Source of the DNA: a virus
Taxonomy: Duplodnaviria; Heunggongvirae; Uroviricota; Caudoviricetes
Length of the DNA: 14,076 nt
Direction: 5' to 3' (one strand)
Virus record (IMG/VR): IMGVR_UViG_2541047688_000003
The translations under genes and the position numbers were made by a program. The notes under the pieces are model-generated. The model was given only the letters and a program-made list of their open reading frames with translations. It made no database searches and was not told the DNA's origin. Of this stretch, positions 1 to 14,076 are shown piece after piece (the first letter of the stretch is position 1; each line of letters starts with the position of its first letter).

Positions 1-1143
1 CTATGCTGTTTTGATATCTACGATAATCCAGTCTTTACCACGATCATCATTGTATCGGTCGGTCATTTTTCTGGATTTATGACCTAACAACTTTTGCGTA
101 TCCAGACCCTGTTCCCGATATAACCGTTCTGACAGAGATCGCTGCTCATGAAATGTGGGCGCAGTTCCTGGCTCCCATTTTATGCCACATTTTTCCCTGG
201 CCTTTTTAAAAGCCGTTGTAAGAGTATTTGCAGACACCTGGTCTCCTCTGTTTGCTTGAGAGGTAGTGTGACGGTAATGGACCAGATATTTACTAACAAC
301 AGCATCCCTGCACTGAGATATAACTTCACGAAGGGTAATATTCAGAGCATCGCATTTCAGGTTAAGCGGAATAGCAAGTTTTGAACCGGTTTTTTCCTGA
401 GTAATGTGCAACATGTCGTCCCAGATATCAGAGAATTTCAAATTGCAGATATCGCCTAAACGTTGTCCAGTGACAAGAGCAAGTAGCATCCCGCATTTTA
501 AATAGGGCTGCCGTCTGCTTACGCTGTCAAATATTGCCTGCCATTCGGGCAGTGATAATCTTTGGCGGTTTACTCGATTTCGCGGTTGTTTTGTTGCCTG
601 CGCTGGGTTAAATCCTGGCGGAACATGTCCTGCGTGTTGTGCTTCTTTGAAGACGTCGATCAACACCATTCTCACGACTTGCGCCATCCTGTTATGACCT
701 TCAGCCTTTACAGCATCAATTATTTCGGCAATATCAAGTGCGGTAATATCCTTGAGGTGTTGCATTCCACAATGCTCACGGAAAAGACGAATGGGTTTGC
801 CTTTTTGCCGATAGGAGTTGGGTCTTAGTTCATTATGTTGCAGCCTGTCCTCCTGGATAGAAATATATTTATCAAGCCATTCTGTCACCGTAATGTCTGA
901 GCGCCTGCCTTTCATTCTTTCTAGACGCTCATTGACGCTTAATATTTGTCGGGTACGTTGTTCAGCAATAATGGTATTTGCTTCAGTAGCAACTTGTTTT
1001 GCTTCATTCTCATCAGTTCCTAAGCTATGAAAACGACCGGATAGTGGATGTTTGTATTGCCAATATACCTTTCCGGTTCGCTTATCTAATTTGCAATATA
1101 AATTGGGTATAGAGATTTTGTGAGATCGGGGTCTAGCAGCCAT
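1..1143 (-). CDS. int: Phage tyrosine integrase, lambda Int-like architecture (380 aa)
   Basis: Full ORF with ATG at 1141-1143 and TAG at 1-3. C-terminal catalytic region carries HxxR and LGHKSRKMTDRY (tyrosine nucleophile context). Overlapped at its 5' end by an excisionase-like gene, as in lambdoid phages. Sequence is not lambda Int itself. Confidence 0.9.
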   Translation of the reverse strand: MAARPRSHKISIPNLYCKLDKRTGKVYWQYKHPLSGRFHSLGTDENEAKQVATEANTIIAEQRTRQILSVNERLERMKGRRSDITVTEWLDKYISIQEDRLQHNELRPNSYRQKGKPIRLFREHCGMQHLKDITALDIAEIIDAVKAEGHNRMAQVVRMVLIDVFKEAQHAGHVPPGFNPAQATKQPRNRVNRQRLSLPEWQAIFDSVSRRQPYLKCGMLLALVTGQRLGDICNLKFSDIWDDMLHITQEKTGSKLAIPLNLKCDALNITLREVISQCRDAVVSKYLVHYRHTTSQANRGDQVSANTLTTAFKKAREKCGIKWEPGTAPTFHEQRSLSERLYREQGLDTQKLLGHKSRKMTDRYNDDRGKDWIIVDIKTA

Positions 1144-1369
1144 CAGCGATTATCCGTTGGAGTTTTGGGTTTGCGTTTATTGGGAGTTGCGGTTCTGCAA
1201 GCGTTCCTACAAAACGGGAATTTCGGTCAATCATCCAGTAGCGACCAACTTTTATAGCGGGTGGGGCCATCATTTTCCCTTGCGCGTATTTTTTCAGAAC
1301 TCGCTCACTTGGTGCTAAGTCCCCAAATTCTTCTTTAGCCCAGTCCTGTAAAGTGATTAGTCGAGACAT
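1133..1369 (-). CDS. xis: Excisionase-like small basic DNA-binding protein (78 aa)
   Basis: Strong RBS (GAGGAGG) 5 nt upstream of ATG at 1367-1369. Overlaps the int start by 11 nt. Motif APPAIKVGRYW resembles the lambda Xis PPPVKDGREY region. Confidence 0.75.
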   Translation of the reverse strand: MSRLITLQDWAKEEFGDLAPSERVLKKYAQGKMMAPPAIKVGRYWMIDRNSRFVGTLAEPQLPINANPKLQRIIADGC

Positions 1370-1508
1370 TTGTCCTCCTCTTAGCTGCTGAGGGAGTTTG
1401 TGACCGATATATCTGACATGATATTAAGCTCATGGCAGGTACATCTCTTGACTGGTCATAGAGATAAATTTAATGCTGAGAAATGCAGTATTGAATTTAT
1501 CAATTTTT

Positions 1509-1748
1509 CTATTTCCTGCGTATGGCACGTAACTTCTTAATGTGTTCTGCTGTTTCGATCTCTTCAGCTATCCGATCTGCGTCAGCTTTATTCACAGGTT
1601 CAAAGTCATGATTAAAGCGGAACATGCTGGCGATACATGTTCTGCCTTTTCGGATGTAGTGAACTTTGTTGTGAGTGGAACGCAGGATTTTGCAGGGAGT
1701 GCCGTGGTGGTCGACGTACCAGGTGTTAGGGTAAATCACTCTGAACAT
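1509..1748 (-). CDS. Hypothetical small phage protein (79 aa)
   Basis: ORF with ATG at 1746-1748, co-oriented and tightly packed in the leftward operon. Function not recognised. Confidence 0.5.
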   Translation of the reverse strand: MFRVIYPNTWYVDHHGTPCKILRSTHNKVHYIRKGRTCIASMFRFNHDFEPVNKADADRIAEEIETAEHIKKLRAIRRK

Positions 1749-1773
1749 TCTTGACCTTGTGTTGTGCGGATTG

Positions 1774-2058
1774 TTATTCAGTGCCGATATTTACCTTTAT
1801 CGCGTATACCTTTACCGGTTTATCACCGAAGTGCGGATGTGTGATTGTCTTCACTTCATATCCGTCATACGGAACATCAACTCTGCGGCTGGAATCGTCG
1901 CGCTTCGGATATCCCTTTGTGATAATCAGGCGGTCATGCTTACGGTTAACGAGGCGCTTTTTCCAGTAGTCATTACACAGGCGATACTCTTCCGTTTTCT
2001 CTCCGCGAATCATGGCATCGAAGTATTCACCTTTAACGGCAAGTTGCAGGTTAGCCAC
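1774..2058 (-). CDS. Hypothetical phage protein (about 94 aa, GTG start)
   Basis: GTG at 2056-2058 preceded by AAGGAG 6 nt upstream and located 2 nt after the upstream gene's stop. The longer ORF to 2142 would overlap the upstream gene by 92 nt. Confidence 0.5.
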   Translation of the reverse strand: MANLQLAVKGEYFDAMIRGEKTEEYRLCNDYWKKRLVNRKHDRLIITKGYPKRDDSSRRVDVPYDGYEVKTITHPHFGDKPVKVYAIKVNIGTE

Positions 2059-2791
2059 GGTTAACTCCTTGCTGTGTGGCGTCGAGTAATAAATCCCACA
2101 ACCGCTGAGAGCAATTTCCGCATGTACAGCGTTGACCCACAACGTTTATCGCGTTGCTGATTTCCGGCGTTACCTGTTTAGGAACCATAACCCAACCATC
2201 CGGAGTTACCGGAAGCGAGAACGGCAGCACATCTCTGTGAACAAGTTTTTGCTGTGACAGGTTATCCAGAACTTTCTGTACTGCTGCATCACCGAATACA
2301 CCAAGCGCATCTGCCATAACTCCTACAACCTGATAAGCCTCAGCGCATACCGTGGATAAACCATCCGGAATTACCGGAGAGTTGCCGGGTTCTTTAATGT
2401 GCAAGCGAGGCTCACCATCTTTTGGCTCAGGCCACTGGCGCTCCATGTTGATCTTCAATTTATCTTCCATAGCAACGGTAATTTCAGCATCGCTGATGCC
2501 AGCACGGCGCTGTGCATCCCACAACAGAAACTGCATATCAGCCCACTCGCTAAGATCGTCTGGTTCGGCTGCGGCTTCCAGTGCCTCTTTTGAGAGGTGT
2601 TTCAGTGGACCAATGGGGCCAACGCAGCCAAATGTGGAGTCAGACCATTTGGCATGCTCGTGGCGAATCTGTTCGCGTTCCAGTGATGCCAGTGCAATTC
2701 GTGCTAGTTCCATTTGTTCGCCACGAGTAAGCCCGTTTTCAAGCGGATTTTTAATGAACAATTCAATACGTTCTTTGGTAATAGTGGTCAT
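2051..2791 (-). CDS. Phage accessory protein (246 aa); N-terminal region recalled as DUF550/MazG-like nucleotide pyrophosphohydrolase-type, C-terminal module with PVxPDG motifs
   Basis: ATG at 2789-2791 with GAGGA RBS, ATGA overlap with the upstream gene's stop. Domain assignment is from memory of prophage protein families and is unverified. Confidence 0.7.
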   Translation of the reverse strand: MTTITKERIELFIKNPLENGLTRGEQMELARIALASLEREQIRHEHAKWSDSTFGCVGPIGPLKHLSKEALEAAAEPDDLSEWADMQFLLWDAQRRAGISDAEITVAMEDKLKINMERQWPEPKDGEPRLHIKEPGNSPVIPDGLSTVCAEAYQVVGVMADALGVFGDAAVQKVLDNLSQQKLVHRDVLPFSLPVTPDGWVMVPKQVTPEISNAINVVGQRCTCGNCSQRLWDLLLDATQQGVNRG

Positions 2792-2997
2792 GTGTTAATC
2801 CTCAAAACTTTATGCCCGGGCGCAAAAGTACGTGTTTTGTCTTTGCTTATTCGCCACCCGTCTTTACGGGCCTCTTTTGCACAACCAGACCATGACGTAC
2901 CGATATACTCACCGAAGTCTGGCACTGGATATACACCTTCCGTACACTGGCGACAATCACAATAGAGATGCATGGTGTAACTTGCGGCAATAGCCAT
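2788..2997 (-). CDS. Small Cys/His-rich putative zinc-binding protein (about 69 aa)
   Basis: Internal ATG at 2995-2997 sits 3 nt after the upstream gene's TGA with a purine-rich RBS. HLYCDCRQC and SWSGC motifs. Alternative start at 3039 would overlap the upstream gene by 41 nt. Confidence 0.5.
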   Translation of the reverse strand: MAIAASYTMHLYCDCRQCTEGVYPVPDFGEYIGTSWSGCAKEARKDGWRISKDKTRTFAPGHKVLRINT

Positions 2998-2998
2998 A

Positions 2999-3532
2999 TC
3001 ACTCTCTTTTTCCCTGAAGCATGGCAGCGTGGCAGGCATCCTCTACGCCCTTAACTGCATCTGCGCAGTAGTTATAGCGATTGCATTCCACTAACTTCTG
3101 CCTGAGATTTTCAATTGCTTGCGCGACATCAGCCTGTATTACAGGAACTGGCGGAACGGCTGTCTGCTGCTCTCGAACGTCATTAGTCGCTATCGGTTCT
3201 GCTGCCAACTGACTGGCATATTTGTTAATGGTAACGATAAGCTCTTGCTCAGCCTCATCCAGACAATCACCGATACCTCGCCTGTCGCCGTCAAAATCAT
3301 CGAAATCAGCACGAACTCTGGCAAATTTCAGGATTGCGGACAACACCTCACCAGGAATTACCGGAGAGTTGGTTGACGTTTCCGAAATTTCCCGAAAATT
3401 ATTGGTTGACGAATTCGCGTTTTCCCGAAAGTTTCCGGCATGAAGCATAGCCGCGCGGCAGGCGTTCCAGCCTCTCACCTCTGCAATAGCGGCAACAGCA
3501 TCGACCGCGTACATGCTAAGAGGGTTAGGCAT
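2999..3532 (-). CDS. Phage accessory protein with low-complexity in-frame tandem repeat (about 177 aa; start uncertain)
   Basis: Long minus-strand ORF. Candidate starts are ATG 3530-3532, GTG 3557-3559 and TTG 3605-3607 (the ORF-track start). Contains the NSPVIPGE motif shared with the neighbouring gene. Confidence 0.55.
   Translation of the reverse strand: MPNPLSMYAVDAVAAIAEVRGWNACRAAMLHAGNFRENANSSTNNFREISETSTNSPVIPGEVLSAILKFARVRADFDDFDGDRRGIGDCLDEAEQELIVTINKYASQLAAEPIATNDVREQQTAVPPVPVIQADVAQAIENLRQKLVECNRYNYCADAVKGVEDACHAAMLQGKRE
3371..3430 (-). repeat. Imperfect tandem direct repeat (about 30 nt, 2 copies), in-frame within a CDS
   Basis: ggttgacgtttccgaaatttcccgaaa followed by ttggttgacgaattcgcgttttcccgaaa. 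Encodes FRENANSSTNN / FREISETSTNS on the minus strand. Confidence 0.6.
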
Positions 3533-3549
3533 TGGTTTTTCTTCAGGTA

Positions 3550-3804
3550 CTACTGGCACTGGCTTGGCATATATAGCGGCTGAACATACCAACCCTTTGA
3601 TAACCAACTGTCAGCAATGTTTTTACTCCTCGTTATTGCCGGAATACCTAAGCCATTGTCTGAATGCAGCCATGCCACCGGATTCTCTTCCAGCGATGCC
3701 AGAGCAATTTCATAAGCCCGGCGCTCAACATTGTCTCGCACATCCAAACTGCTGATACGCTCTTTGATTTCTTTAATCAGTTCTTTGTCGGTAAAAGTGC
3801 TCAT
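3550..3804 (-). CDS. Hypothetical phage protein (84 aa) sharing an IALASLE module with the 246-aa protein
   Basis: ATG at 3802-3804 preceded by GGAG with a 7-nt spacer, 1 nt after the upstream TGA. The longer track ORF to 3825 overlaps the upstream gene. Confidence 0.6.
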   Translation of the reverse strand: MSTFTDKELIKEIKERISSLDVRDNVERRAYEIALASLEENPVAWLHSDNGLGIPAITRSKNIADSWLSKGWYVQPLYMPSQCQ

Positions 3805-3805
3805 A

Positions 3806-4570
3806 TCAATCTCCATTGGTATCAATGTTTACAGCCTGACAAGACTCTTTGAGCACCCAGTCAATAGCGTCTTTCCATGCCTCTGTTTCGACTGGTGGAT
3901 TTTCACGCTTAACCTGTTCATAGAAGCGCACTGCTTTAACCAGTCCTTCCGGTACTACTGGTGATGGCTGTTTAGCTTCTAAATCAGCAATTCTGTCAAC
4001 CACGGCATCGACAGCATCTGAAAAGCCGAACCAGTTGCTCCACTCCGGCTCATCCCCGGTTGCTGCAAAGTACATATCTGCTAAAGCAGATTCAGCATGG
4101 TCACGCTCGTTAATGAGTTGCTCTTCGCTTTTCTCCAGTTCAGCAATACGCTTACCCCCATCCGAGATAACACCTTCGTAATACTCACGCTGCTCGTTGA
4201 GTTTTGATTTTGTCTCCTCAAGCTCAACTCTCAGCTTCCCAACAGTAAGAGCAATATCCTCGTTCTCCTGGTCGCGGCGTTTTATGTATTGCTGGTTTCT
4301 TTCCCGTTCATCCAGCAGTGCCAGCACAGTAGCCGGATTGGCTGCGGCGATGAATTCAGCATTGGCCTGCTGTTCCATTTGGAAATCTTCATCGAAACCG
4401 CTTTCTGGATGCGCTCCTTCAATTCTGCAAATGGGAATATATCCAGCAACTTCACGATGAATTAGCGCATAATCACCATCAAATCGGCTCTCTCCATATT
4501 CGAGCGACCACTCACCACACGTTGCTTTTTCTGCCGCTTCACGCAGTGCCTGATAGTTAATTTCGCTCAC
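3806..4570 (-). CDS. Ead/Ea22-like protein (254 aa) with central coiled-coil-like region
   Basis: GTG start at 4568-4570 overlaps the upstream stop (GTGA) with GAGAGG RBS. N-terminus QALREAAEKAT...NAEFIAAANPATVLALLD matches my recollection of the Ead/Ea22-like family. Charged heptad-like middle region. Confidence 0.75.
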   Translation of the reverse strand: MSEINYQALREAAEKATCGEWSLEYGESRFDGDYALIHREVAGYIPICRIEGAHPESGFDEDFQMEQQANAEFIAAANPATVLALLDERERNQQYIKRRDQENEDIALTVGKLRVELEETKSKLNEQREYYEGVISDGGKRIAELEKSEEQLINERDHAESALADMYFAATGDEPEWSNWFGFSDAVDAVVDRIADLEAKQPSPVVPEGLVKAVRFYEQVKRENPPVETEAWKDAIDWVLKESCQAVNIDTNGD

Positions 4571-4788
4571 TTCGAACCTCTCTGTTTACTGATAAGCTCC
4601 AGATCCTCCTGGCAACTTGCACAAGTCCGACAACCCTGAACGACCAGGCGTCTTCGTTCATCTATGGGATCGCCACACTCACAACAATGAGTGGCGGATA
4701 TAGTCTGGTAGTTCAGACGACGCATTTTTATTGCTGTATTGCGCTGTAATTCTTCAATTTCTGATGCTGAATCAATGATGTCCGCCAT
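4567..4788 (-). CDS. TraR/DksA-family C4 zinc-finger protein (73 aa), lambda Orf73-like
   Basis: CCECGDPIDERRRLVVQGCRTCASC gives a CxxC...CxxC C4 finger with the conserved spacing of the TraR/DksA family. Size and position match the TraR homologue recalled in lambda's early-left operon. Confidence 0.75.
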   Translation of the reverse strand: MADIIDSASEIEELQRNTAIKMRRLNYQTISATHCCECGDPIDERRRLVVQGCRTCASCQEDLELISKQRGSK

Positions 4789-4837
4789 CTTTCATTAATC
4801 CCTGAATTGTTGGTTAATACGCTTGAGGGTGAATGCG

Positions 4838-4865
4838 AATAATAAAAAAGGAGCCTGTAGCTCCC
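4838..4865 (-). terminator. Candidate intrinsic terminator or attenuator inside the leftward operon
   Basis: On the minus strand: GGAGC-UACAG-GCUCC stem-loop (plus coordinates 4850-4864) followed by UUUUUUAUUAUU (4838-4849). Stem is short (5-6 bp). Confidence 0.35.
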
Positions 4866-4886
4866 TGATGATTTTGCTTTTCATGT

Positions 4887-5168
4887 TCACCGTTCCTTAA
4901 AGACGCCGTTTAACATGCCGATCGCCAGGCTTAAATGAGTCGGTGTGAATCCCATCAGCGTTACCGTTTCGCGGTGCTTCTTTAGTACGCTACGGCAAAT
5001 GTCATCGACGTTTTTATCCGGAAACTGCTGTCTGGCTTTTTTGATTTCAGAATTAGCCTGACGGGCAATGCTGCGAAGGGCGTTTTCTTGCTGAGGTGTC
5101 ACTGAACAAGCCCCATGTCGGCAAGCATAAGCACACAGAATATGAAGCCCGCTGCCAGAAAAATGCAT
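4887..5168 (-). CDS. Hypothetical phage protein (93 aa as drawn; true start uncertain)
   Basis: ORF with ATG at 5166-5168 but poor RBS. An internal GTG at 5100-5102 overlaps the stop of a 27-codon upstream ORF (see findings). Confidence 0.45.
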   Translation of the reverse strand: MHFSGSGLHILCAYACRHGACSVTPQQENALRSIARQANSEIKKARQQFPDKNVDDICRSVLKKHRETVTLMGFTPTHLSLAIGMLNGVFKER

Positions 5169-5178
5169 TCAGTGGTTG

Positions 5179-5370
5179 TCATACCTGGTCTCTCTCATCT
5201 GCTTCTGCTTTCGCCACCATCATTTCCAGCTTTTGTGAAAGGGATGTGGCTAACGTATGAAATTCTTCGTCTGTTTCTACTGGTATTGGCACAAACCTGA
5301 CTCCAATTTGAGCAAGGCTATGTGCCATCTCAATACTCGTTCTTAACTCAACAGGAGATGCTTTGTGCAT
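5179..5370 (-). CDS. orf63: Lambda Orf63-like protein (63 aa)
   Basis: 63-codon ORF immediately downstream of orf60a in the same order as recalled for lambda. Identity from memory, unverified. Confidence 0.6.
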   Translation of the reverse strand: MHKASPVELRTSIEMAHSLAQIGVRFVPIPVETDEEFHTLATSLSQKLEMMVAKAEADERDQV

Positions 5371-5525
5371 ACCGCCTCCCGTTTATTATTTATCTTCTCA
5401 GCCAGCCGCTGTGCTTTCAGTGGATTTCTGATAACAGAAAGGCCGGGAAATACCCAGCCTCGCTTTGTAACGGAGTAGACGAAAGTGATCGCGCCTACCC
5501 GGATATTATCGTGAGGATGCGTCAT
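5343..5525 (-). CDS. orf60a: Lambda Orf60a-like protein (60 aa)
   Basis: ATG at 5523-5525 overlaps the exo stop (ATGA). Sequence [29 protein letters not shown] matches my recollection of lambda orf60a. Confidence 0.6.
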
Positions 5526-6202
5526 CGCCATTGCTCCCCAAATACAAAACTAATTTCAGCCAGTGCCTCGTCCATTTTTTCGATGAACTCCGGCACCATC
5601 TCGTCAAAACTCGCCATGTACTTTTCATCCCGCTCAACCACGACATAATGCAGTCCTTCACGCTTCATACGCGGGTCATAGTTGGCAAAGTACCAGGCAT
5701 CTTTTCGCGTCACCCACATGCTGTACTGCACCTGGGCCATGTAAGCCGATTTTATGGCCTCGAAACCACCGAGCCGGAACTTCATGAAATCCCGGGAGGT
5801 AAACGGGCATTTCAGCTCAAGGCCGTTGCCGTCACTGCATAAACCATCGGGAGAGCAGGCGGTGCGCATACTTTCGTCGCGATAGATGATCGGGGATTCA
5901 GTAACATTCACGCCGGAAGTAAACTCAAACAGGGCTCTGGCGTCGTTCTCGTACTGTTTTCCCCAAGCCAGCGCCTTAGCGTTAACTTCCGGAGCCACAC
6001 CGGTGCAAACCTCAGCAAGCAGGGTGTGGAAGTAGGACATTTTCATGTCAGGCCATTTCTTTCCGGAGCGGGGTTTTGCTATCACGTTGTGAACTTCTGA
6101 AGCGGTGATGACGCCGAGCCGTAATTTGTGCCATGCATCATCCCCCTGTTCGACAGCTCTCACGTCGATCCCGGTACGCTGCAGGATAATGTCCGGTGTC
6201 AT
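5522..6202 (-). CDS. exo: Lambda exonuclease (Red alpha), 226 aa
   Basis: Translation [40 protein letters not shown]...GFVFGEQWR is essentially lambda Exo by recall. ATGA overlap with bet as in lambda. Confidence 0.97.
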
Positions 6203-6984
6203 GCTGCCACCTTCTGCTCAGTGGCTTTCTGTTTCAGGAATCCAAGAGCTTTCACTGCTTCGGCCTGTGTCAGTTCTGACGATGCGCGAATGTCGCGGCG
6301 AAATATCTGGGAACAGAGCGGCAATAAGTCGTCATCCCATGTTTTATCCAGGGCGATCAGCAGAGTGTTAATCTCCTGCATGGTTTCATCGTTAACCGGA
6401 GTGATGTCGCGTTCCGGCTGACGTTCTGCAGTGTATGCGGTATTTTCGACAATGCGCTCGGCTTCATCCTTGTCATAGATACCAGCAAATCCGAAGGCGA
6501 GACGGGCACACTGAATCATGGCTTTATGCCGTAACATCCGTTTGGGATGCGACTGCCACGGCCCCGTGATTTCTCTGCCTTCGCGGGTTTTGAATGGTTC
6601 GCGGCGGCATTCATCCATCCACTCGGTAACGCAGATCGGATGATTGCGGTCTTTGCGGTAAATCCGGCATGTACATGATTCATTGTCCTGCTCAAAGTCC
6701 ATACCATCAAACTGCTGGTTTTCATTGATGATGCGGGACCAGCCATCAACGCCCACCACCGGAACAATGCCGTTCTGCTTATCAGGGAAGGCGTAAATTT
6801 CTTTCGTCCACGGATTAAGGCCGTACTGGTTGGCGACGATCAACAATGCGATGAACTGCGCATCGCTGGCATCACCTTTAAATGCCGTCTGGCGAAGAGT
6901 GGTGATCAGTTCCTGTGGGTCGACAGAATCCATGCCGACACGTTCAGCCAGCTTCCCTGCCAGCGTTGCGAGTGCTGTACTCAT
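6199..6984 (-). CDS. bet: Lambda Bet (Red beta single-strand annealing protein), 261 aa
   Basis: Translation [44 protein letters not shown]... is essentially lambda Bet by recall. Confidence 0.97.
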
Positions 6985-6989
6985 CCGTT

Positions 6990-7286
6990 TTATACCTCTG
7001 AATCAATATCAGCCTGATGGTGAGCAATGGTTTCAACTATGTACCGGATGTGTTCTGCCATGCGCTCCTGAAACTCAACATCGTCATCAAACGCACGGGT
7101 AATGGCTTTTTTGCTGGCCCCGTGGCGTTGTAAATGATCGATGCATAGCGATTCAAACAGGTGCTGGGGCAGGCCTTTTTCCATGTCGTCTGCCAGTTCT
7201 GCCTCTTTCTCTTCACGGGCGATCTGCTGGTAGTGACGCGCCCAGCTCTGAGCCTCAAGACGATCCTGAATGTAATAAGCGTTCAT
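6990..7286 (-). CDS. gam: Gam, short form (GamS-type RecBCD inhibitor), 98 aa
   Basis: [21 protein letters not shown]...[10 protein letters not shown] matches the C-terminal 98 aa of lambda Gam. Own RBS CAGGAG upstream. The N-terminal extension coding sequence is present but out of frame (see findings). Confidence 0.93.
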
Positions 7287-7361
7287 GGCTGAACTCCTGA
7301 AAATGGCTGTGAAAATATCGCCCGCGAAATGCCAGGCTGATTAGGAAAACAGGAAAGGGGG

Positions 7362-7505
7362 TTAGTGAATGCTTTTGCTTGATCTCAGTTTCAGTATTAA
7401 TATCCATTTTTTATAAGCGTCGACGGCCTCACGAAACATCTTTTCATCGCCAATAAAAGTGGCGATAGTGAATTTAGTCTGGATAGCCATAATTGTTTGA
7501 TCCAT
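7362..7505 (-). CDS. kil: Kil (host cell-division inhibitor), 47 aa
   Basis: Internal ATG at 7503-7505 with [55 protein letters not shown] matches lambda Kil by recall. Overlaps the cIII 3' end as in lambda. Confidence 0.85.
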
Positions 7506-7638
7506 TTTTTGGGACTCCTGGCTGATTAAGTATGTCGATAAGGCGTTTCCATCCGTCACGTAATTTACGGGTGATTCGTTCAAGTAAAGATTCGGAAGGG
7601 CAGCCAGCAACAGGCCACCCTGCAATGGCATATTGCAT
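7474..7638 (-). CDS. cIII: CIII (FtsH/HflB protease inhibitor), 54 aa
   Basis: ATG at 7636-7638 with AAGGAG RBS 6 nt upstream. [54 protein letters not shown] matches lambda CIII by recall. Confidence 0.85.
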   Translation of the reverse strand: MQYAIAGWPVAGCPSESLLERITRKLRDGWKRLIDILNQPGVPKNGSNNYGYPD

Positions 7639-7752
7639 GGTGTGCTCCTTATTTATACATAACGAAAAACGCCTCGAGTTGAAGTGGTTTACTGAATTTG
7701 GCCACCTGAACAGAGGTGATATGCTCACCTCAGAACAACACAGGTGCCATAA

Positions 7753-7795
7753 TGTCAACGCCACGATGTTTGACCGTTATTTGCCATTTTCATGC
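7753..7795. repeat. IS21 terminal inverted repeat (istB-proximal end)
   Basis: tgtcaacgccacgatgtttgaccgttatttgccatttt aligns, with one gap, to the reverse complement of the other end. Confidence 0.7.
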
Positions 7796-7812
7796 CCGCT
7801 AAGATACTTTCG

Positions 7813-9782
<1,970 letters not shown>

Positions 9783-9840
9783 GTTGATGTCCTTTCTGGT
9801 GTGAGAACCTTAAGGAAACAACATGTTGGGTGGAGCGGAC

Positions 9841-9883
9841 AATCCAAATGGTGAATTACCGTCTTATATCACTGGCGCTGACA
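9841..9883. repeat. IS21 terminal inverted repeat (istA-proximal end)
   Basis: Reverse complement reads tgtcagcgccagtgatataagacggtaattcaccattt, matching the opposite terminus. Confidence 0.7.
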
Positions 9884-10026
9884 GCTGGCAGTTGTATGAG
9901 CGCGGAGAGCTTGTTGATGTGCTGTGGGGGGAACTGGAATGGTCTTCCCCGACAGATGACGATGAGCTGCCGGAAGTCACCGGACCTGCGTGGATAGTCG
10001 ACAATGTGGCGCATTATGGCGGATGA
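9884..10026 (+). pseudogene. 3' remnant of a plus-strand gene truncated by the IS21 insertion or rearrangement
   Basis: Open frame runs from the IS boundary to TGA at 10024-10026 (...SWQLYERGELVDVLWGELEWSSPTDDDELPEVTGPAWIVDNVAHYGG) and is followed by a terminator. The frame upstream lies within IS DNA. Confidence 0.35.
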
Positions 10027-10038
10027 AGTATGACGGAG

Positions 10039-10067
10039 ACGGGCGGGCAACCGCCCGTTTCTTTTCC
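10039..10067 (+). terminator. Intrinsic terminator
   Basis: ACGGGCGG-GCAA-CCGCCCGT 8-bp GC-rich stem with tetraloop, followed by TTCTTTTCC. Confidence 0.6.
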
Positions 10068-10127
10068 GGTAAAGGATGTCGCCGTGCTCCTCTTTTTACT
10101 GCGCCGGCTGACGCGGCGCGGCATAAA

Positions 10128-10351
10128 CGCTGCCTGTGGTCAGTGTCCCGCGTCCGGTGGGCACGGGACGGGCGCTTTTACCGCTCCCGGCTGGCGTCGG
10201 TGACAGTGTACGCCAGCCTGTCGCCCTTTTCTGATGAACGCCCTTCAAGCCGCTTTCGCGGCATAGCCTTGCCGTCAGAAAGACGACGGCTGCGGTATTC
10301 CACGGTCGGCCTGACCCGTTACCGGACGCGGTGAACAGCCCACAGGCAGCG
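10128..10351 (+). promoter_or_regulatory. Long imperfect inverted repeat; candidate single-strand promoter (Frpo/ssi-like) or other structured regulatory element
   Basis: Arm 10128-10157 (cgctgcctgtggtcagtgtcccgcgtccgg) is about 25/30 complementary to arm 10322-10351. Arms are about 165 nt apart in a GC-rich noncoding region upstream of the methyltransferase gene. Confidence 0.4.
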
Positions 10352-10409
10352 GGGAACGGGCACCACAGGGGTGCCCTCCCGGTGCCCTCTGTAAGAGAAG
10401 GAGTTTTGT

Positions 10410-11093
10410 ATGTCCCGTTTTGTCCTCGGTAACTGCATCGATGTTATGGCCCGTATTCCTGATAACGCCATTGATTTCATACTGACTGACCCGCCGTACC
10501 TCGTCGGTTTCCGTGACCGTTCCGGGCGCACCATTGCCGGTGATGTTAATGATGACTGGCTGCAACCTGCCAGCAATGAGATGTACCGCGTACTCAAAAA
10601 AGACGCGCTGATGGTCAGCTTCTACGGCTGGAACCGTGTCGATCGCTTTATGGCCGCCTGGAAACGCGCCGGATTCAGCGTGGCAGGGCACCTCGTGTTC
10701 ACCAAAAACTACACATCCAAATCTGCGTATGTCGCGTACCGTCACGAATGCGCTTACATCCTGGCAAAGGGCAGTCCGGCCCGGCCCCGTAACCCTCTGC
10801 CGGATGTGCTGGGCTGGAAATATTCAGGCAATCGTCATCACCCGACGGAAAAGCCCGTTACCAGCCTGCAACCACTGATTGAGAGCTTCACACATCCGAA
10901 CGCGATTGTGCTGGACCCGTTTGCAGGCAGCGGCTCAACCTGCGTCGCTGCCCTCCAGTCCGGACGCCGGTATATCGGTATCGAGCTGCTTGAACAGTAT
11001 CACCGTGCCGGACAGCAACGACTGGCCGCCGTGCAACGGGCCATGCAGCAGGGGGCCGCGAATGATAACTGGTTTGAACCGGAGGCTGCGTAA
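10410..11093 (+). CDS. Orphan DNA amino-methyltransferase (DPPY motif, beta-class N6-adenine/N4-cytosine), 227 aa
   Basis: AAGGAG RBS 7 nt upstream. Catalytic motif TDPPYL near the N-terminus and SAM-binding motif DPFAGSGST near the C-terminus. No restriction endonuclease partner is visible in the window. Confidence 0.9.
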   Translation: MSRFVLGNCIDVMARIPDNAIDFILTDPPYLVGFRDRSGRTIAGDVNDDWLQPASNEMYRVLKKDALMVSFYGWNRVDRFMAAWKRAGFSVAGHLVFTKNYTSKSAYVAYRHECAYILAKGSPARPRNPLPDVLGWKYSGNRHHPTEKPVTSLQPLIESFTHPNAIVLDPFAGSGSTCVAALQSGRRYIGIELLEQYHRAGQQRLAAVQRAMQQGAANDNWFEPEAA

Positions 11094-11315
11094 ATGAACT
11101 ATGCCGGACACGAAAAACTTCGCGCCGACGTGGCGGAGGTGGCCAACACCATGTGTGACCTTCGGGCCAGGCTGAACGATATGGAGCATCGCTGTCGCTT
11201 TGATTCCGATGTGCTTGTTGAACGCCTGACACGCCAGACGCTGTATCGCGCCAATCGCCTGTTCATGGAGGCGTATACCGAAATTCTGGAACTGGATTCC
11301 TGCTTCAAAGATTGA
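11094..11315 (+). CDS. Hypothetical protein (73 aa)
   Basis: ATG immediately after the methyltransferase stop codon, GGAGG 10 nt upstream. Co-oriented in the same gene block. Confidence 0.6.
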   Translation: MNYAGHEKLRADVAEVANTMCDLRARLNDMEHRCRFDSDVLVERLTRQTLYRANRLFMEAYTEILELDSCFKD

Positions 11316-11328
11316 GAAGGAGACGAGA

Positions 11329-11763
11329 ATGTACGGAACATGCGAAACGCTATGCCGGAAGCTGGCAGCAAAGTATTCGGGAGACACGCCACTGATGCTG
11401 GTTATCTGGTCCCCGGAAGAAATTCAGGCCCTCTCTGACGGAATGGATATTGCCCTGACCGATCATGAAATCAGGACTGTCCTGGCGCGCCTGGAGGACA
11501 TCCCGGAAGACCAGCGGACTGAATCCGGTATTTCTTCCGGCGTGGCGATGGAGATCATCAATAACGTGAGCGAAAACCGCCAGGTGACTGTCCCTGCTGA
11601 ACTGCTGGCGTCCCTGATTCAGACCGCTGAACAGGCATTGTGGAAACGTGAATGGGCCGCCTGGGATCATGGCCTCGCCGTCCCGGAATGCGTCACCCGC
11701 CGTCAGGCGGTGGTTAATCAGGTCCGCATCCTGCTGAAAAACAACACACACGAAAACGACTGA
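11329..11763 (+). CDS. Plasmid leading-region protein, DUF1380-like (144 aa)
   Basis: AAGGAG RBS. Shares the motif R(Q/H)VTVPA(E/V)(L/M)L and a near-identical start region with the 13466-13888 ORF. Family name from recall, unverified. Confidence 0.75.
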   Translation: MYGTCETLCRKLAAKYSGDTPLMLVIWSPEEIQALSDGMDIALTDHEIRTVLARLEDIPEDQRTESGISSGVAMEIINNVSENRQVTVPAELLASLIQTAEQALWKREWAAWDHGLAVPECVTRRQAVVNQVRILLKNNTHEND

Positions 11764-11766
11764 TGT

Positions 11767-11790
11767 TATCGCCGCCTCCGGGCGGCGATA
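11767..11790 (+). other. Perfect hairpin without U-tract between genes
   Basis: TATCGCCGCC-TCCG-GGCGGCGATA (10-bp stem, 4-nt loop) immediately after the stop at 11761-11763. No T-run follows. Confidence 0.5.
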
Positions 11791-11807
11791 CAGGGAGTTC
11801 ATGAATT

Positions 11808-12578
11808 ATGAATGAAATGCTGAATGCACTGATTTATCGCCACGCCAGCAACCTGTTGCTGGCGCAGGGCTGGCCGGAAGAGACGGATGTTGACCAGCGT
11901 AACCCGAAGTATCCGGGCTGGATCAGCATTTACGTGCGGCTGGATGCGCCCCGGCTGGCGACGTTACTTATCAAGCGTCACGGCGGCGTACTGCCGCCGC
12001 TCCTGGCCTCTGCCATTCAGAAACTGACCGGAACCGGAGCGGAACTTGTTCTGTCCGGCAGTCAGTGGCAGTCGCTGCCGGTACTTCCGGCAGACGGAAC
12101 GCAGGTGTCTTTCCCGTATGCCGGTGAGTGGCTGGCAGAGGACGAAATCAGGGCCGTTCTTGGTGCGGTACGCGATGCAGTATGCAGTGTCAGTTACCAG
12201 GTGGCAGAAGATGCGCGGCGTATCCGTGCGGCGCTGACCACCACCGGTCAGACGTTGCTGACCCGCCAGACGCGCCGCTTTCGCCTGGTGGTGAAGGAAA
12301 GCGATCACCCCTGCTGGCTCGATGAAGACGACGAAAACCTGCCCGTGGTGCTCGATGCCATCCTGAACCGGGGCGCTCGTTTTTCGTCGGTGGAAATGTA
12401 TCTGGTCAGTGAGTGTGTGGAGCATATCCTGTCCAGTGGGCTGGCCTGCGATATGCTGCGTATACCGGATGAACCGCCCCGCCGCTGGTTTGACCGTGGT
12501 GTTCTGCGGGAGGTGGTCCGGGAAGCCCGGAACGAAATCCGCAGCATGGCGGATGCCCTGGCAAAAATCCGGAAATGA
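11808..12578 (+). CDS. Uncharacterised protein (256 aa)
   Basis: Long plus-strand ORF with AGGGAG upstream. No recognisable motif. Embedded between antirestriction-type genes. Confidence 0.75.
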
Positions 12579-12585
12579 TGACGCT

Positions 12586-12611
12586 GGCGGGGAAAAATCT
12601 CCGCCTTTTCC
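12586..12611 (+). terminator. Intrinsic terminator
   Basis: GGCGGGG-AAAAAT-CTCCGCC stem (one G-U pair) followed by TTTTCC, 8 nt after the stop codon. Confidence 0.5.
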
Positions 12612-12720
12612 AGTCGGTCCCCGGAAAGAGCAAAAGGATGTCGCCGCAGGCTCCTCTTTACCCGGCCATGTGGGGCATGGCCTTGTGGGTTTTCAGTTAT
12701 GTGGCCTCAGCGTCGTGTGC

Positions 12721-12956
12721 GGGCTGTGCCGTGCCTCCATCGTAGCCGGGCTTCTGCGGGCGGGTTGCAAGGTAAGGTGAACCGCTGCGGTCACCCGGTC
12801 CCTCCTTCCCGTCTGCCGTGATTTTCCGGTCGTTCACCCGCTCAGATTTCGCGGTCTCACCCTCCAACTCCCGTCAGCCGTGCGCGTCAGGCTGCGGCTT
12901 CCCTTGCGCCCTTGCAACCCTGCAGGCCCGGCAAAGATGGAGGCACGGCACCGCCC
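12721..12956 (+). promoter_or_regulatory. Second long imperfect inverted repeat (about 50-nt arms); candidate single-strand promoter or structured regulatory element
   Basis: Arm 12721-12772 pairs with arm 12910-12956, including a perfect 14-nt core gccgtgcctccatc / gatggaggcacggc. Lies upstream of klcA. Confidence 0.4.
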
Positions 12957-12993
12957 GGTGTCGCGGAATATGTGAACAACGGAGGAAAACATC

Positions 12994-13419
12994 ATGCAAT
13001 ATGCGAAACCTGTCACTCTGAATGTTGAAGAGTGCGACCGTCTCTCCTTTCTGCCTTACCTGTTTGGCCTGGATTTTCTGTATGCCGAGGCATCTGTGTA
13101 CACGCTGGCGAAAAAAATGATGCCGGAATATGAAGGCGGATTCTGGCACTTCATCCGCCTGCCGGACGGTGGCGGTTACATGATGCCGGATGGCGACCGT
13201 TTTCATCTGGTTAACGGTGAAAACTGGTTTGACCGTACCGTGAGTGCTGATGCCGCAGGCATCATCCTTACCTCCCTTGTGATTAACCGCCAGTTGTGGC
13301 TGTACCACGACAGCGGGGATGCAGGGTTGACACACCTGTACAGGATGCGCGATGCGCAGTTGTGGAGCCACATCGAATTTCACCCCGAATGCAACGCGAT
13401 TTACGCGGCACTTGACTGA
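12994..13419 (+). CDS. klcA: ArdB/KlcA-family antirestriction protein (141 aa)
   Basis: GGAGG RBS. Motifs [30 protein letters not shown] and [12 protein letters not shown] parallel ArdB/KlcA proteins as recalled. Confidence 0.85.
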
Positions 13420-13428
13420 TTAACGGAC

Positions 13429-13447
13429 GGGGCGGCAATGCCGCCCC
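13429..13447 (+). other. GC hairpin without U-tract upstream of the next RBS
   Basis: GGGGCGGC-AAT-GCCGCCCC 8-bp perfect stem, followed directly by AAAGGAGACGAGAAC and ATG at 13466. Confidence 0.45.
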
Positions 13448-13465
13448 TGTAAAGGAGACGAGAAC

Positions 13466-13888
13466 ATGTACTGTACTGTTAAAGAAATCATCCGCGATGT
13501 ACTGGATACAGACGTGCCGGACAGTGAATGCGTTTTTGCCGTGGTGCTGACCCGTGGGGATGTGCGTCACATAGCCCAGGACTGGAGTCTGACAGACGAT
13601 GAGCTGGAAACCGTCATGCAGCGGCTGGACGATGCTTTTGTATATGGCGCATGTGACAGAGTTGTTTCCGATATTGTAAATGAACTGATGGAAGAAAAGC
13701 GCGCCAGCCGTCATGTGACAGTCCCGGCGGTGATGCTGGAAAAAGTGATGGCGCTGGCAGGCAGTGAAATGAAGCGCCTGTATGCCGTCGGGAGTGAGAA
13801 CGGGGGCGACGGTGACGCATTCGTCAGGGAGGAACGCGAAGCAATGGACGTTGTGTTACAGGCGCTGGACGGGGAGCACATGTCATGA
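13466..13888 (+). CDS. DUF1380-like paralogue (140 aa)
   Basis: Same RBS and start context (aaggagacgagaacatgtac) as the 11329 gene. Shared RHVTVPAVML motif. Confidence 0.75.
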   Translation: MYCTVKEIIRDVLDTDVPDSECVFAVVLTRGDVRHIAQDWSLTDDELETVMQRLDDAFVYGACDRVVSDIVNELMEEKRASRHVTVPAVMLEKVMALAGSEMKRLYAVGSENGGDGDAFVREEREAMDVVLQALDGEHMS

Positions 13889-14076
13889 ATATCAGCACAG
13901 AAACCCGCGAAATTCTGCGTAATTACAGGGCCGTGATTAATGCGCGGCGTCGTGAAATGGGGCAGAAACCGCTCACCACCGCGCAGATTGTTGATGAAAT
14001 CTGCGATTTTGTGGCGAATCAGCAGGCGGTTTTCCTGGGCGGTCACTACATCTTACAGGGCAGCAGAAACAGGTGA
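13885..14076 (+). CDS. Hypothetical small protein (63 aa)
   Basis: ATGA overlap with the preceding gene. Stop codon TGA at 14074-14076, the last three bases of the window. Confidence 0.55.
   Translation: MNISTETREILRNYRAVINARRREMGQKPLTTAQIVDEICDFVANQQAVFLGGHYILQGSRNR

Follow-up and report, generated by a model that had tools for sequence, protein, structure and literature searches.

The window, meaning the whole 14,076-nucleotide stretch of DNA analysed here, consists in its left half of prophage DNA joined at an IS21 end to plasmid DNA, with positions 7753-14076 agreeing with plasmid pUTI89 at all 6324 positions (100%) and falling in the pUTI89 leading region. A 415-bp intergenic gap in this plasmid part (12579..12993) separates a yffB-like gene for a 256-aa protein from a klcA/ardB-family antirestriction gene on the plus strand (12994..13419; Pfam PF03230, Antirestrict, E = 2.7e-26), which is predicted to be the first gene driven by the element described below. 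It is followed on the same strand by a weak DUF1380-like open reading frame (ORF; 13466..13888; Pfam E = 0.0048, 17.4 bits, under the 26-bit cutoff) and by a small ORF downstream of it taken from the ORF list (13885..14076). The same-strand genes at 13466..14076 probably share the early operon of klcA, and the gene order downstream of klcA matches that of F and pESBL. An earlier sequence-only reading of this DNA had described the gap as a noncoding stretch of 415 bp in front of an antirestriction gene, and both descriptions hold. Six ORFs cross the gap at 12579-12993 and have no Pfam match, and indels of 1 and 4 nt set close homologues of the gap apart; a protein-coding gap was rejected on these grounds. 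No Rfam covariance model matches 12579-12993. In public records such gaps are left blank or are given spurious "hypothetical protein" calls, and the practical value of the present analysis lies in their annotation.

At the left end of the gap, a terminator-like hairpin with the arms GGCGGGGA and TCTCCGCC (12586-12605), followed by TTTT, spans 12586..12609 on the plus strand (RNA fold -14.4 kcal/mol) and may mark the end of the upstream operon. The terminator that the sequence-only reading placed ahead of the element thus has a structural counterpart, but its tail comprises four T only and a terminator scan with a five-T criterion leaves it out, so that it is kept here as a tentative one.

Plasmid context and the transferred strand

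The gap is 100% identical to that of the IncF plasmid NZ_CP024888 (locus L001), to which the plasmid part of the window is 97.6% identical overall, and it is found at 80% identity or more in at least 5000 PLSDB plasmids. F carries an equivalent gap of 413 bp before its antirestriction gene. In alignments of 360-423 nt, the identity of the gap is 88.2% to F (417 nt), 87.7% to the gap before pESBL klcA and 86.7% to that before pESBL ardA. The region represents the distal leading region of pUTI89 and L001, where the order runs methylase, DUF1380, 256-aa gene, gap, antirestriction gene, ssb, psiB, hok, gene X and traM. A second copy of the element was not found in L001.

Orientation was read from the F nic sequence GGGGTGTGGTGCTTT, which occupies 27084-27098 on the L001 minus strand and has the corresponding position in F. 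This relaxase-site sequence belongs to the transferred strand (T-strand), whose 5' end enters the recipient first. The minus strand of the window is therefore the transferred strand, serving as template of the plus-strand genes. In L001, nic is located about 12.7 kb to the right of the hairpin, at a position outside the window, with traM beyond nic. The window itself holds no oriT and its prophage half is joined at an IS21 end, so that this particular copy may no longer be transferred.

A conserved hairpin of the transferred strand

The gap contains a long inverted repeat. A repeat search returned one pair of arms at 12720-12751 and 12926-12957 (32 nt, 91% complementary) and a second pair at 12762-12772 and 12910-12920 (11 nt, 100% complementary), in agreement with the paired arms at 12721-12772 and 12910-12956 that had been noticed from the sequence. 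The perfect core reported with them is present and measures 16 nt, not 14 (GTGCCGTGCCTCCATC at 12726-12741 versus GATGGAGGCACGGCAC at 12936-12951), and the GC-rich spacer of about 137 nt is found as described (12773-12909, 65% GC). Altogether the hairpin spans 12720..12957 on the minus strand, 238 nt with a GC content of 68% compared with 51% for the window. Folded as single-stranded DNA, a 276-nt stretch of the minus strand reaches -75.8 kcal/mol (z = -5.39, equalled by 0 of 200 shuffles) and the same stretch of the plus strand -72.4 kcal/mol (z = -4.81); the 238-nt hairpin alone has a ΔG of -74.1 kcal/mol.

Three parts can be distinguished in the folded minus strand. Its 5' arm (12910..12957) is the template arm according to the repeat, the fold and the orientation given by the nic site, and would be read by RNA polymerase into klcA. 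Its 3' arm (12720..12772), delimited by the repeat, the fold and the family logo described below, is the non-template arm and carries the promoter hexamers. Between them lies an apical domain of 137 nt (12773..12909), defined by alignment and comprising helices 5-8, in which two motifs conserved in the family, AAGCCGCAGCC (consensus of the family AAGCCGCAGCGC) and G(A/C)CCGGGTGA, pair with one another.

Homologues were collected from one genome per species by a conserved-pattern scan followed by nhmmer, which yielded 76 full-length copies in Enterobacterales, in genera including Escherichia, Klebsiella, Salmonella, Yersinia, Erwinia, Pantoea, Mixta and Rahnella. Fifty non-redundant representatives (<92% identity) were aligned, and the resulting family profile matches the window at 12993-12696 with E = 6.5e-32. 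The consensus structure consists of 32 pairs. Across the 50 copies 96.7% of the cells are paired, compared with 33-40% when the partners are slid by 1-3 columns. Compensatory changes occur at 15 pairs, with observed values reached by 0 of 500 shuffles, and extend to helices 5-8 of the apical domain. The basal clamp folds independently in 42 of the 50 copies. The arms are thus conserved as a pair in relatives of the element, which bears out the sequence-only reading on this point as well as on its proposal of a structured regulatory element, repeated within the leading region and belonging to a family shared across plasmids.

The non-template arm carries a strongly conserved signature, T50 T48 G47 of 50 at the -35 position, a constant 15-nt spacer and T49 A50 N N G47 T50 at the -10 position; the search pattern included TA...T and both clamps and so inflates their apparent invariance, which is partly controlled by 16 representatives that were obtained without the pattern and read T15 A16 ... 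T16, with TTG at 16, 16 and 15 of 16. In the folded homologues the -35 element is mostly paired, T(-12) is paired in 41 of 42 and A(-11) is left unpaired in 40 of 42. Throughout the family alignment the hairpin is succeeded, at constant spacing, by the complements of a Shine-Dalgarno sequence and of a start codon. The genes served are equally consistent: among 44 downstream genes there are 16 N6_N4 methylases, 12 ArdA, 10 KlcA/ArdB and 3 DUF1281 proteins, so that ArdA, KlcA/ArdB or a DNA methylase accounts for 38 of the 44. These data establish the hairpin with its homology and structural conservation, as well as the promoter signature, the strand and the kinds of gene that are served.

The same alignment bears on the molecule in which the fold operates. 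A repeat of this kind could serve at the RNA level, in plus-sense read-through transcripts, as a terminator, an insulator, a processing site or a translational regulator of klcA, and the good folding of the plus strand (z = -4.8) together with the terminator-like hairpins just upstream would be in keeping with such a role. However, wobble cells are strongly biased to the minus strand, with 61 G.T against 14 A.C, which places selection for the fold on the T-strand rather than on plus-sense RNA; at one pair, 37 of the 50 copies have G.T, which would become A.C in a plus-sense transcript. Further, the conserved TTG and TAnnnT with a mismatched -10 would be meaningless in an RNA hairpin, and the predicted transcription start lies inside the last arm, so that the mRNA derived from single-stranded DNA would not contain the hairpin. 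We consider an RNA-level function highly unlikely.

A duplex-DNA element would be the other departure, either an operator or cruciform for a plasmid or host regulator or a MITE-like selfish repeat with terminal inverted repeats. In favour of this, the element has long inverted repeats, and several copies per plasmid are present in Erwinia and Pantoea. Several loci carry two or three full-length copies per 8 kb, but these always lie on one strand within a locus, and copies keep one orientation per locus and a fixed distance to the gene start. There is no transposase and target duplications were not seen. The compensatory changes preserve intra-strand pairing and not a protein-binding sequence, and the F homologue has a demonstrated single-strand function (bioRxiv 10.64898/2026.01.09.698686). 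The probability of an operator or mobile repeat is accordingly close to negligible. The element very probably acts as minus-strand, transferred DNA, not as RNA and not as a duplex operator.

A probable class 2 single-stranded DNA promoter and its mid-stem allele

The family signature places a -35 hexamer TTGCAA at 12765..12770 and a -10 hexamer TACGAT at 12739..12744, both on the minus strand. The -35 hexamer is palindromic and pairs with 12912-12917, and it would thereby be presented as duplex. The -10 hexamer stands on the non-template arm opposite 12933-12938, where T(-12) and C(-10) face T residues (T.T, C.T) and A(-11) forms a lone A:T pair between these mismatches. A(-11) is the base flipped out by sigma-70 during promoter opening. 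A count of 7 nt downstream of the -10, in the register of the hairpin, predicts a transcription start at about 12945, an A (12943..12947, plus strand), which would give a 5' UTR of about 49 nt up to the ATG at 12994. For klcA, a Shine-Dalgarno sequence GGAGG is found at 12981..12985 on the plus strand; its complement CTCC is nearly invariant in the alignment and stands at a fixed distance from the hairpin. Against the promoter reading, a spacing of 15 nt is short for sigma-70, and A(-11) of the window is a lone A:T pair and not unpaired as in most homologues.

A conventional duplex promoter was also sought. In its duplex form the plus strand reads TTGCAA-15 nt-AAAGAT, and a consensus scan of 9700-13100 returned no duplex sigma-70 consensus promoter; this candidate was rejected.

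Elements of this type have been described in the literature of 2024-2026, and the finding is a re-identification. Wen et al. 2025 mapped six zygotically induced operons in the IncI1 plasmid pESBL, with starts determined by 5' RACE, and screened for hairpins below -75 kcal/mol per 300 nt (PMC12672017). Their class 2 single-stranded DNA promoters are the hairpins 5' of pESBL klcA and ardA, which are conserved in F and are unrelated in sequence to the Frpo/ssi elements (class 1), whereas class 3 is the hairpin 5' of the methylase M.EcoGIX in pESBL (PMC12672017). Promoter activity on the single strand that is transferred has been shown for the homologues of F and pESBL (PMC12672017; bioRxiv 10.64898/2026.01.09.698686). 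A start within the hairpin and induction in transconjugants ahead of conversion to duplex DNA have been reported for pESBL by 5' RACE and for F by RNA-seq (PMC12672017). The F copy has been named Frpo3, with 68.6% GC and 86% identity to Frpo'4 (bioRxiv 10.1101/2025.04.03.647016; PMC13478746), a candidate listed by Samuel et al. 2024 in their Supplementary Table 2 (PMC11541004). In Fraikin et al. 2026 it is ssp2 (bioRxiv 10.64898/2026.01.09.698686). According to that study, the ssp2 stem stalls complementary-strand synthesis at the stem end until relieved by UvrD, and its deletion halves PsiB induction and cuts transfer into non-isogenic or restriction-proficient recipients, by 21-fold or more for restriction-proficient E. 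coli strains (bioRxiv 10.64898/2026.01.09.698686).

Comparison with the F copy shows a close relationship. As in the window, ssp2/Frpo3 occupies the gap between a yffB-like gene and an antirestriction gene on the same strand; the basal clamps and the apical domain are near-identical, the lengths are 239 nt in F and 238 nt in the window, and the GC content of 68% matches. The window differs by one G.A mismatch in the basal stem, where F has 21 continuous pairs, by a ΔG of -74.1 compared with -79.6 kcal/mol, and in the mid-stem, where F has a -35 TTGCAT, a 15-nt spacer and a -10 TAAGAT while the non-template arm of the window has TTGCAA, 20 nt and TACGAT. The klcA and ardA promoters of pESBL (NC_018659) share the architecture and the class of downstream gene with the window but reside in an IncI1 backbone, have F-type mid-stem alleles and occur as two copies compared with one in the window. 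The alignment with Frpo'4, Frpo*1 and Frpo*3 covers the entire hairpin, for Frpo'4 on the minus strand of the window, with the clamps GCCGTG and CACGGC and GCCCGGCTA invariant (PMC11541004); these candidates stem from an insect-gut metagenome element, are computational predictions only and are more divergent, and Frpo*1 and Frpo*3 represent the short form.

The element under study is homologous in sequence to the pESBL klcA/ardA and F hairpins. It lies in a leading region in which the downstream genes have the transferred strand as their template, with oriT outside the window, and it forms a long and very stable T-strand stem-loop whose pairing is conserved with covariation. The stem rebuilds -35 and -10 elements on the arm that leads into klcA and in the matching direction, though with an atypical spacer. 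On these features, 12720-12957 is very probably a class 2 single-stranded DNA promoter, the pUTI89-type allele of F ssp2/Frpo3 and thus its orthologue, with its activity taken over from the F and pESBL homologues.

Class 1 offers the closest mechanistic parallel. Its members, F ssiD (Frpo1) and Frpo2 and ssi1-3 of ColIb-P9 (Masai and Arai 1997; Bates 1999; Nasim 2004), are likewise long leading-region hairpins of the T-strand that rebuild -35 and -10 elements for sigma-70 RNA polymerase and are silenced by conversion to duplex. They are less GC-rich, at 56-58% compared with 68% (bioRxiv 10.1101/2025.04.03.647016). Using F ssiD, F ssiE and ColIb Frpo1-2 as queries, blastn (word size 7, E up to 0.01) gave no match in the window, and these class 1 queries matched elsewhere: pUTI89 has three copies beyond the point where the window ends on its downstream side, F has two and pESBL three. 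Membership of the classical Frpo/ssi sequence class was rejected on this absence of blastn matches, and class 1 was retained as an analogue in mechanism: like an Frpo, the element is a hairpin of the T-strand that presents sigma-70 boxes, but its sequence does not belong to class 1.

The parallel with class 1 also raises the question of priming, in which case the hairpin would mainly be a single-strand initiation site, where RNA polymerase or primase would make a primer for complementary-strand synthesis, and klcA expression would be incidental. In its first description, the classical Frpo supplied primer RNA (Masai and Arai 1997), and priming has in vivo support at the class 1 promoters ssp1a and ssp1b (bioRxiv 10.64898/2026.01.09.698686). 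In F, however, it is the class 1 transcripts that serve as primers for DNA synthesis, which ssp2 blocks; ssp2 delays conversion and does not start it, and the delay survives rifampicin (bioRxiv 10.64898/2026.01.09.698686). Moreover, every family copy is followed at constant spacing by a ribosome-binding site and a start codon, and anti-restriction genes are the ones served, a coupling that indicates selection for expression. A mainly priming function is therefore unlikely, and the element is discussed below as a promoter.

We propose that, during conjugation, the minus strand would enter the recipient 5' end first, from nic about 12.7 kb to the right of the hairpin. Once both arms are inside, the strand would fold into the 238-nt GC-rich hairpin, whose stem would rebuild a sigma-70 promoter from the duplex -35 TTGCAA and the -10 TACGAT on the 3' non-template arm. 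Being partly mismatched, this -10 would already be half open. Host RNA polymerase could then start near 12945 and use as template first the 5' arm and then the DNA past it, and klcA and the following genes would be transcribed into mRNA before any complementary strand exists. Complementary-strand synthesis would remove the hairpin and switch the promoter off, leaving the duplex silent. By homology with F ssp2, complementary-strand synthesis may also stall at the base of the hairpin, at a point predicted around 12719-12720, until the stem is opened by the host helicase UvrD, and this stall would prolong early expression of the whole leading region. The start, zygotic induction, the roadblock and UvrD dependence are extended to this allele from the F and pESBL homologues, which are 87-88% identical.

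Single-stranded DNA promoters allow anti-restriction, anti-SOS and methylase genes to be expressed within seconds of entry, before the complementary strand is made, and F ssp2 in addition times the conversion to duplex DNA. The element is carried by very common pUTI89-like virulence and resistance plasmids of E. coli and is thus relevant to their spread.

What is new beyond the published class lies partly in the variant internal loop of this allele. Compared with F, both arms have changed in a coordinated way between the GCCGGGC/GCCCGGC clamp and the -35. The spacer of the window allele is atypical, counting 20 nt on the non-template arm against 15 nt on its template counterpart. In F and the 49 other representatives it is the non-template side that has 15 nt and the template side that has about 20. 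The unpaired mid-stem bases thus lie on the non-template arm in the window and on the template arm in F, pESBL and the 49 other representatives. Given these extra unpaired bases on the non-template arm, promoter strength or stalling could differ from F and pESBL. A 66-nt probe across the variant mid-stem matched about 1390 PLSDB plasmids with at least 95% identity, most of them conjugative plasmids of E. coli, and because of this wide occurrence the pUTI89-type mid-stem allele is not a decayed copy.

The methylase-upstream hairpin and the flank motif

A first long T-strand hairpin is present in the window directly 5' of an N6_N4 methylase gene (10410-11093). It spans 10128..10351 on the minus strand, with an inverted repeat of 31 nt (84%) and z = -6.6. 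The sole Rfam match in 9700-14076 falls on this hairpin (Erse, RF02757; 18.7 bits compared with a gathering score of 138). The first element is 99.2% identical to pESBL locus L004 at 4401-4780, directly 5' of M.EcoGIX, and 96% identical to its F equivalent. From this position 5' of M.EcoGIX, it probably corresponds to class 3 of Wen et al., or ssp3, which according to Fraikin et al. is without roadblock activity (bioRxiv 10.64898/2026.01.09.698686). The sequence-only reading had placed both structured elements before an antirestriction gene; this applies to the second, upstream of klcA, whereas the first precedes a DNA methylase and not an antirestriction protein.

Aligning the two elements with each other, as that reading had proposed, separated them. 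No alignment is obtained between the two hairpins, and the first element gives no match to the class 2 profile; homology between the two hairpins of the window was rejected, and they belong to different published classes. What they have in common is an architecture, a place in the leading region and the flank motif AAAGGATGTCGCC..CTCCTCTTT, a 27-nt stretch that is the sole similarity of the two gaps.

Upstream of the klcA hairpin this motif (AAAGGATGTCGCC...GCTCCTCTTT) is located at 12633..12659 on the plus strand, and its counterpart in the methylase-upstream gap at 10072-10096. A small ORF, a ribosome-binding site, an anti-Shine-Dalgarno sequence and an intrinsic terminator were considered by inspection, and none fits the motif, which forms the other new aspect of the locus. 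It is possible, if rather doubtful, that the pUTI89-type allele is a functionally distinct ssp2 variant that tunes promoter strength or stall length, and that the flank motif, written as (AA)GGATGTCG-N5-9-CTCCNCTTT, is an undescribed module, for example in termination, priming or factor loading. In pESBL and pUTI89 the flank motif is absent beside class 1 elements and occurs only upstream of the class 2 hairpins and the methylase hairpin; in the family alignment it adjoins 15 of the 50 class 2 copies.

Conserved features of class 2 hairpins and their flanks

Class 2 hairpins, the single-stranded DNA promoter hairpins of the F ssp2/Frpo3 type, are represented in the window by a copy at 12720-12957 located 5' of klcA. 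Their apical domain (window 12773-12909) contains two near-invariant motifs, AAGCCGCAGCGC and GCGAACGGGTGAG, corresponding to columns 115-128 and 224-238 of an alignment of 50 non-redundant class 2 copies. In this alignment, AAGCCGCAGCGC pairs with GCGAACGGGTGAG and the bulges are likewise conserved. Both motifs lie beyond the -35 element and their conservation is thus left unexplained by promoter function.

A second conserved motif, (AA)GGATGTCG-N5-9-CTCC(G/T)CTTT, is found outside the hairpin, a few tens of nucleotides (about 20-60) past its base and on the arrival side of complementary synthesis. It adjoins class 2 hairpins as well as the hairpin upstream of the methylase gene, but is absent next to class 1 (classical Frpo/ssi) hairpins. 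Sites are located at 12633-12659 and 10072-10096 in the window, at 4443, 7012 and 13957 in the IncI1 plasmid pESBL (locus L004) and at 20320 and 22882 in pUTI89 (locus L125).

The hairpin upstream of the methylase gene

The methylase-upstream hairpin (window 10128-10351, minus strand) lies directly 5' of the methylase gene and forms a hairpin family of its own (z = -6.6). It is probably the published class 3 hairpin, ssp3, known as the M.EcoGIX promoter hairpin. A RefSeq hypothetical protein, WP_001310011.1, is annotated over this element (window 10023-10334) and is probably a spurious gene call. Rfam returned a weak match to the Erse sRNA (RF02757) in the same region (window 10174-10369, minus strand). 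Its score of 18.7 bits falls short of the gathering score of 138, and the match is most likely a mere effect of the long GC-rich hairpin.

Possible further class 2 relatives

Weak full-length matches to the class 2 profile (26 bits, E about 2e-6) were detected upstream of DUF1281 genes in pESBL (locus L004, 3279-3464) and F (locus L002, 2664-2849), and clear class 2 copies precede DUF1281 genes in Erwinia and Pantoea. The pESBL and F region may represent a diverged class 2 relative that is missing from the six-promoter scheme for pESBL. Strong class 2 matches also occur in assemblies labelled Streptomyces, Ferruginibacter and Leucobacter, on contigs that are short (loci L062, L082, L078 and L046). 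These matches look as if enterobacterial plasmid DNA had contaminated the respective assemblies or been mis-binned into them.

Composite make-up of the window

The window consists of two joined parts. Positions 1-7754 are 100% identical to a lambdoid prophage early-left region (int, bet, exo, gam, kil), as found in phage ev017, PhiR57_1 and the prophage of ATCC 25922, and positions 7753-14076 are 100% identical to pUTI89. The start of the plasmid part coincides exactly with an IS21 terminus, TGTCAACGCC, and this part contains a complete IS21 copy (7753-9880) encoding istB (7813-8613) and istA (8610-9782), both on the minus strand. No record spanning 80% of the window was found in the plasmid, phage and E. 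coli collections. The junction thus arose either through recombination mediated by IS21 or through a mis-join across IS21 during assembly. In pUTI89, IS21 interrupts a DUF1281 gene that lies immediately 5' of the methylase operon.

Three class 1 Frpo copies follow in pUTI89 downstream of the window (locus L125, 24716-25048, 28007-28356 and 33397-33746), the nearest only about 400 nt past its end; the full plasmid therefore carries at least five hairpins resembling single-stranded DNA promoters.
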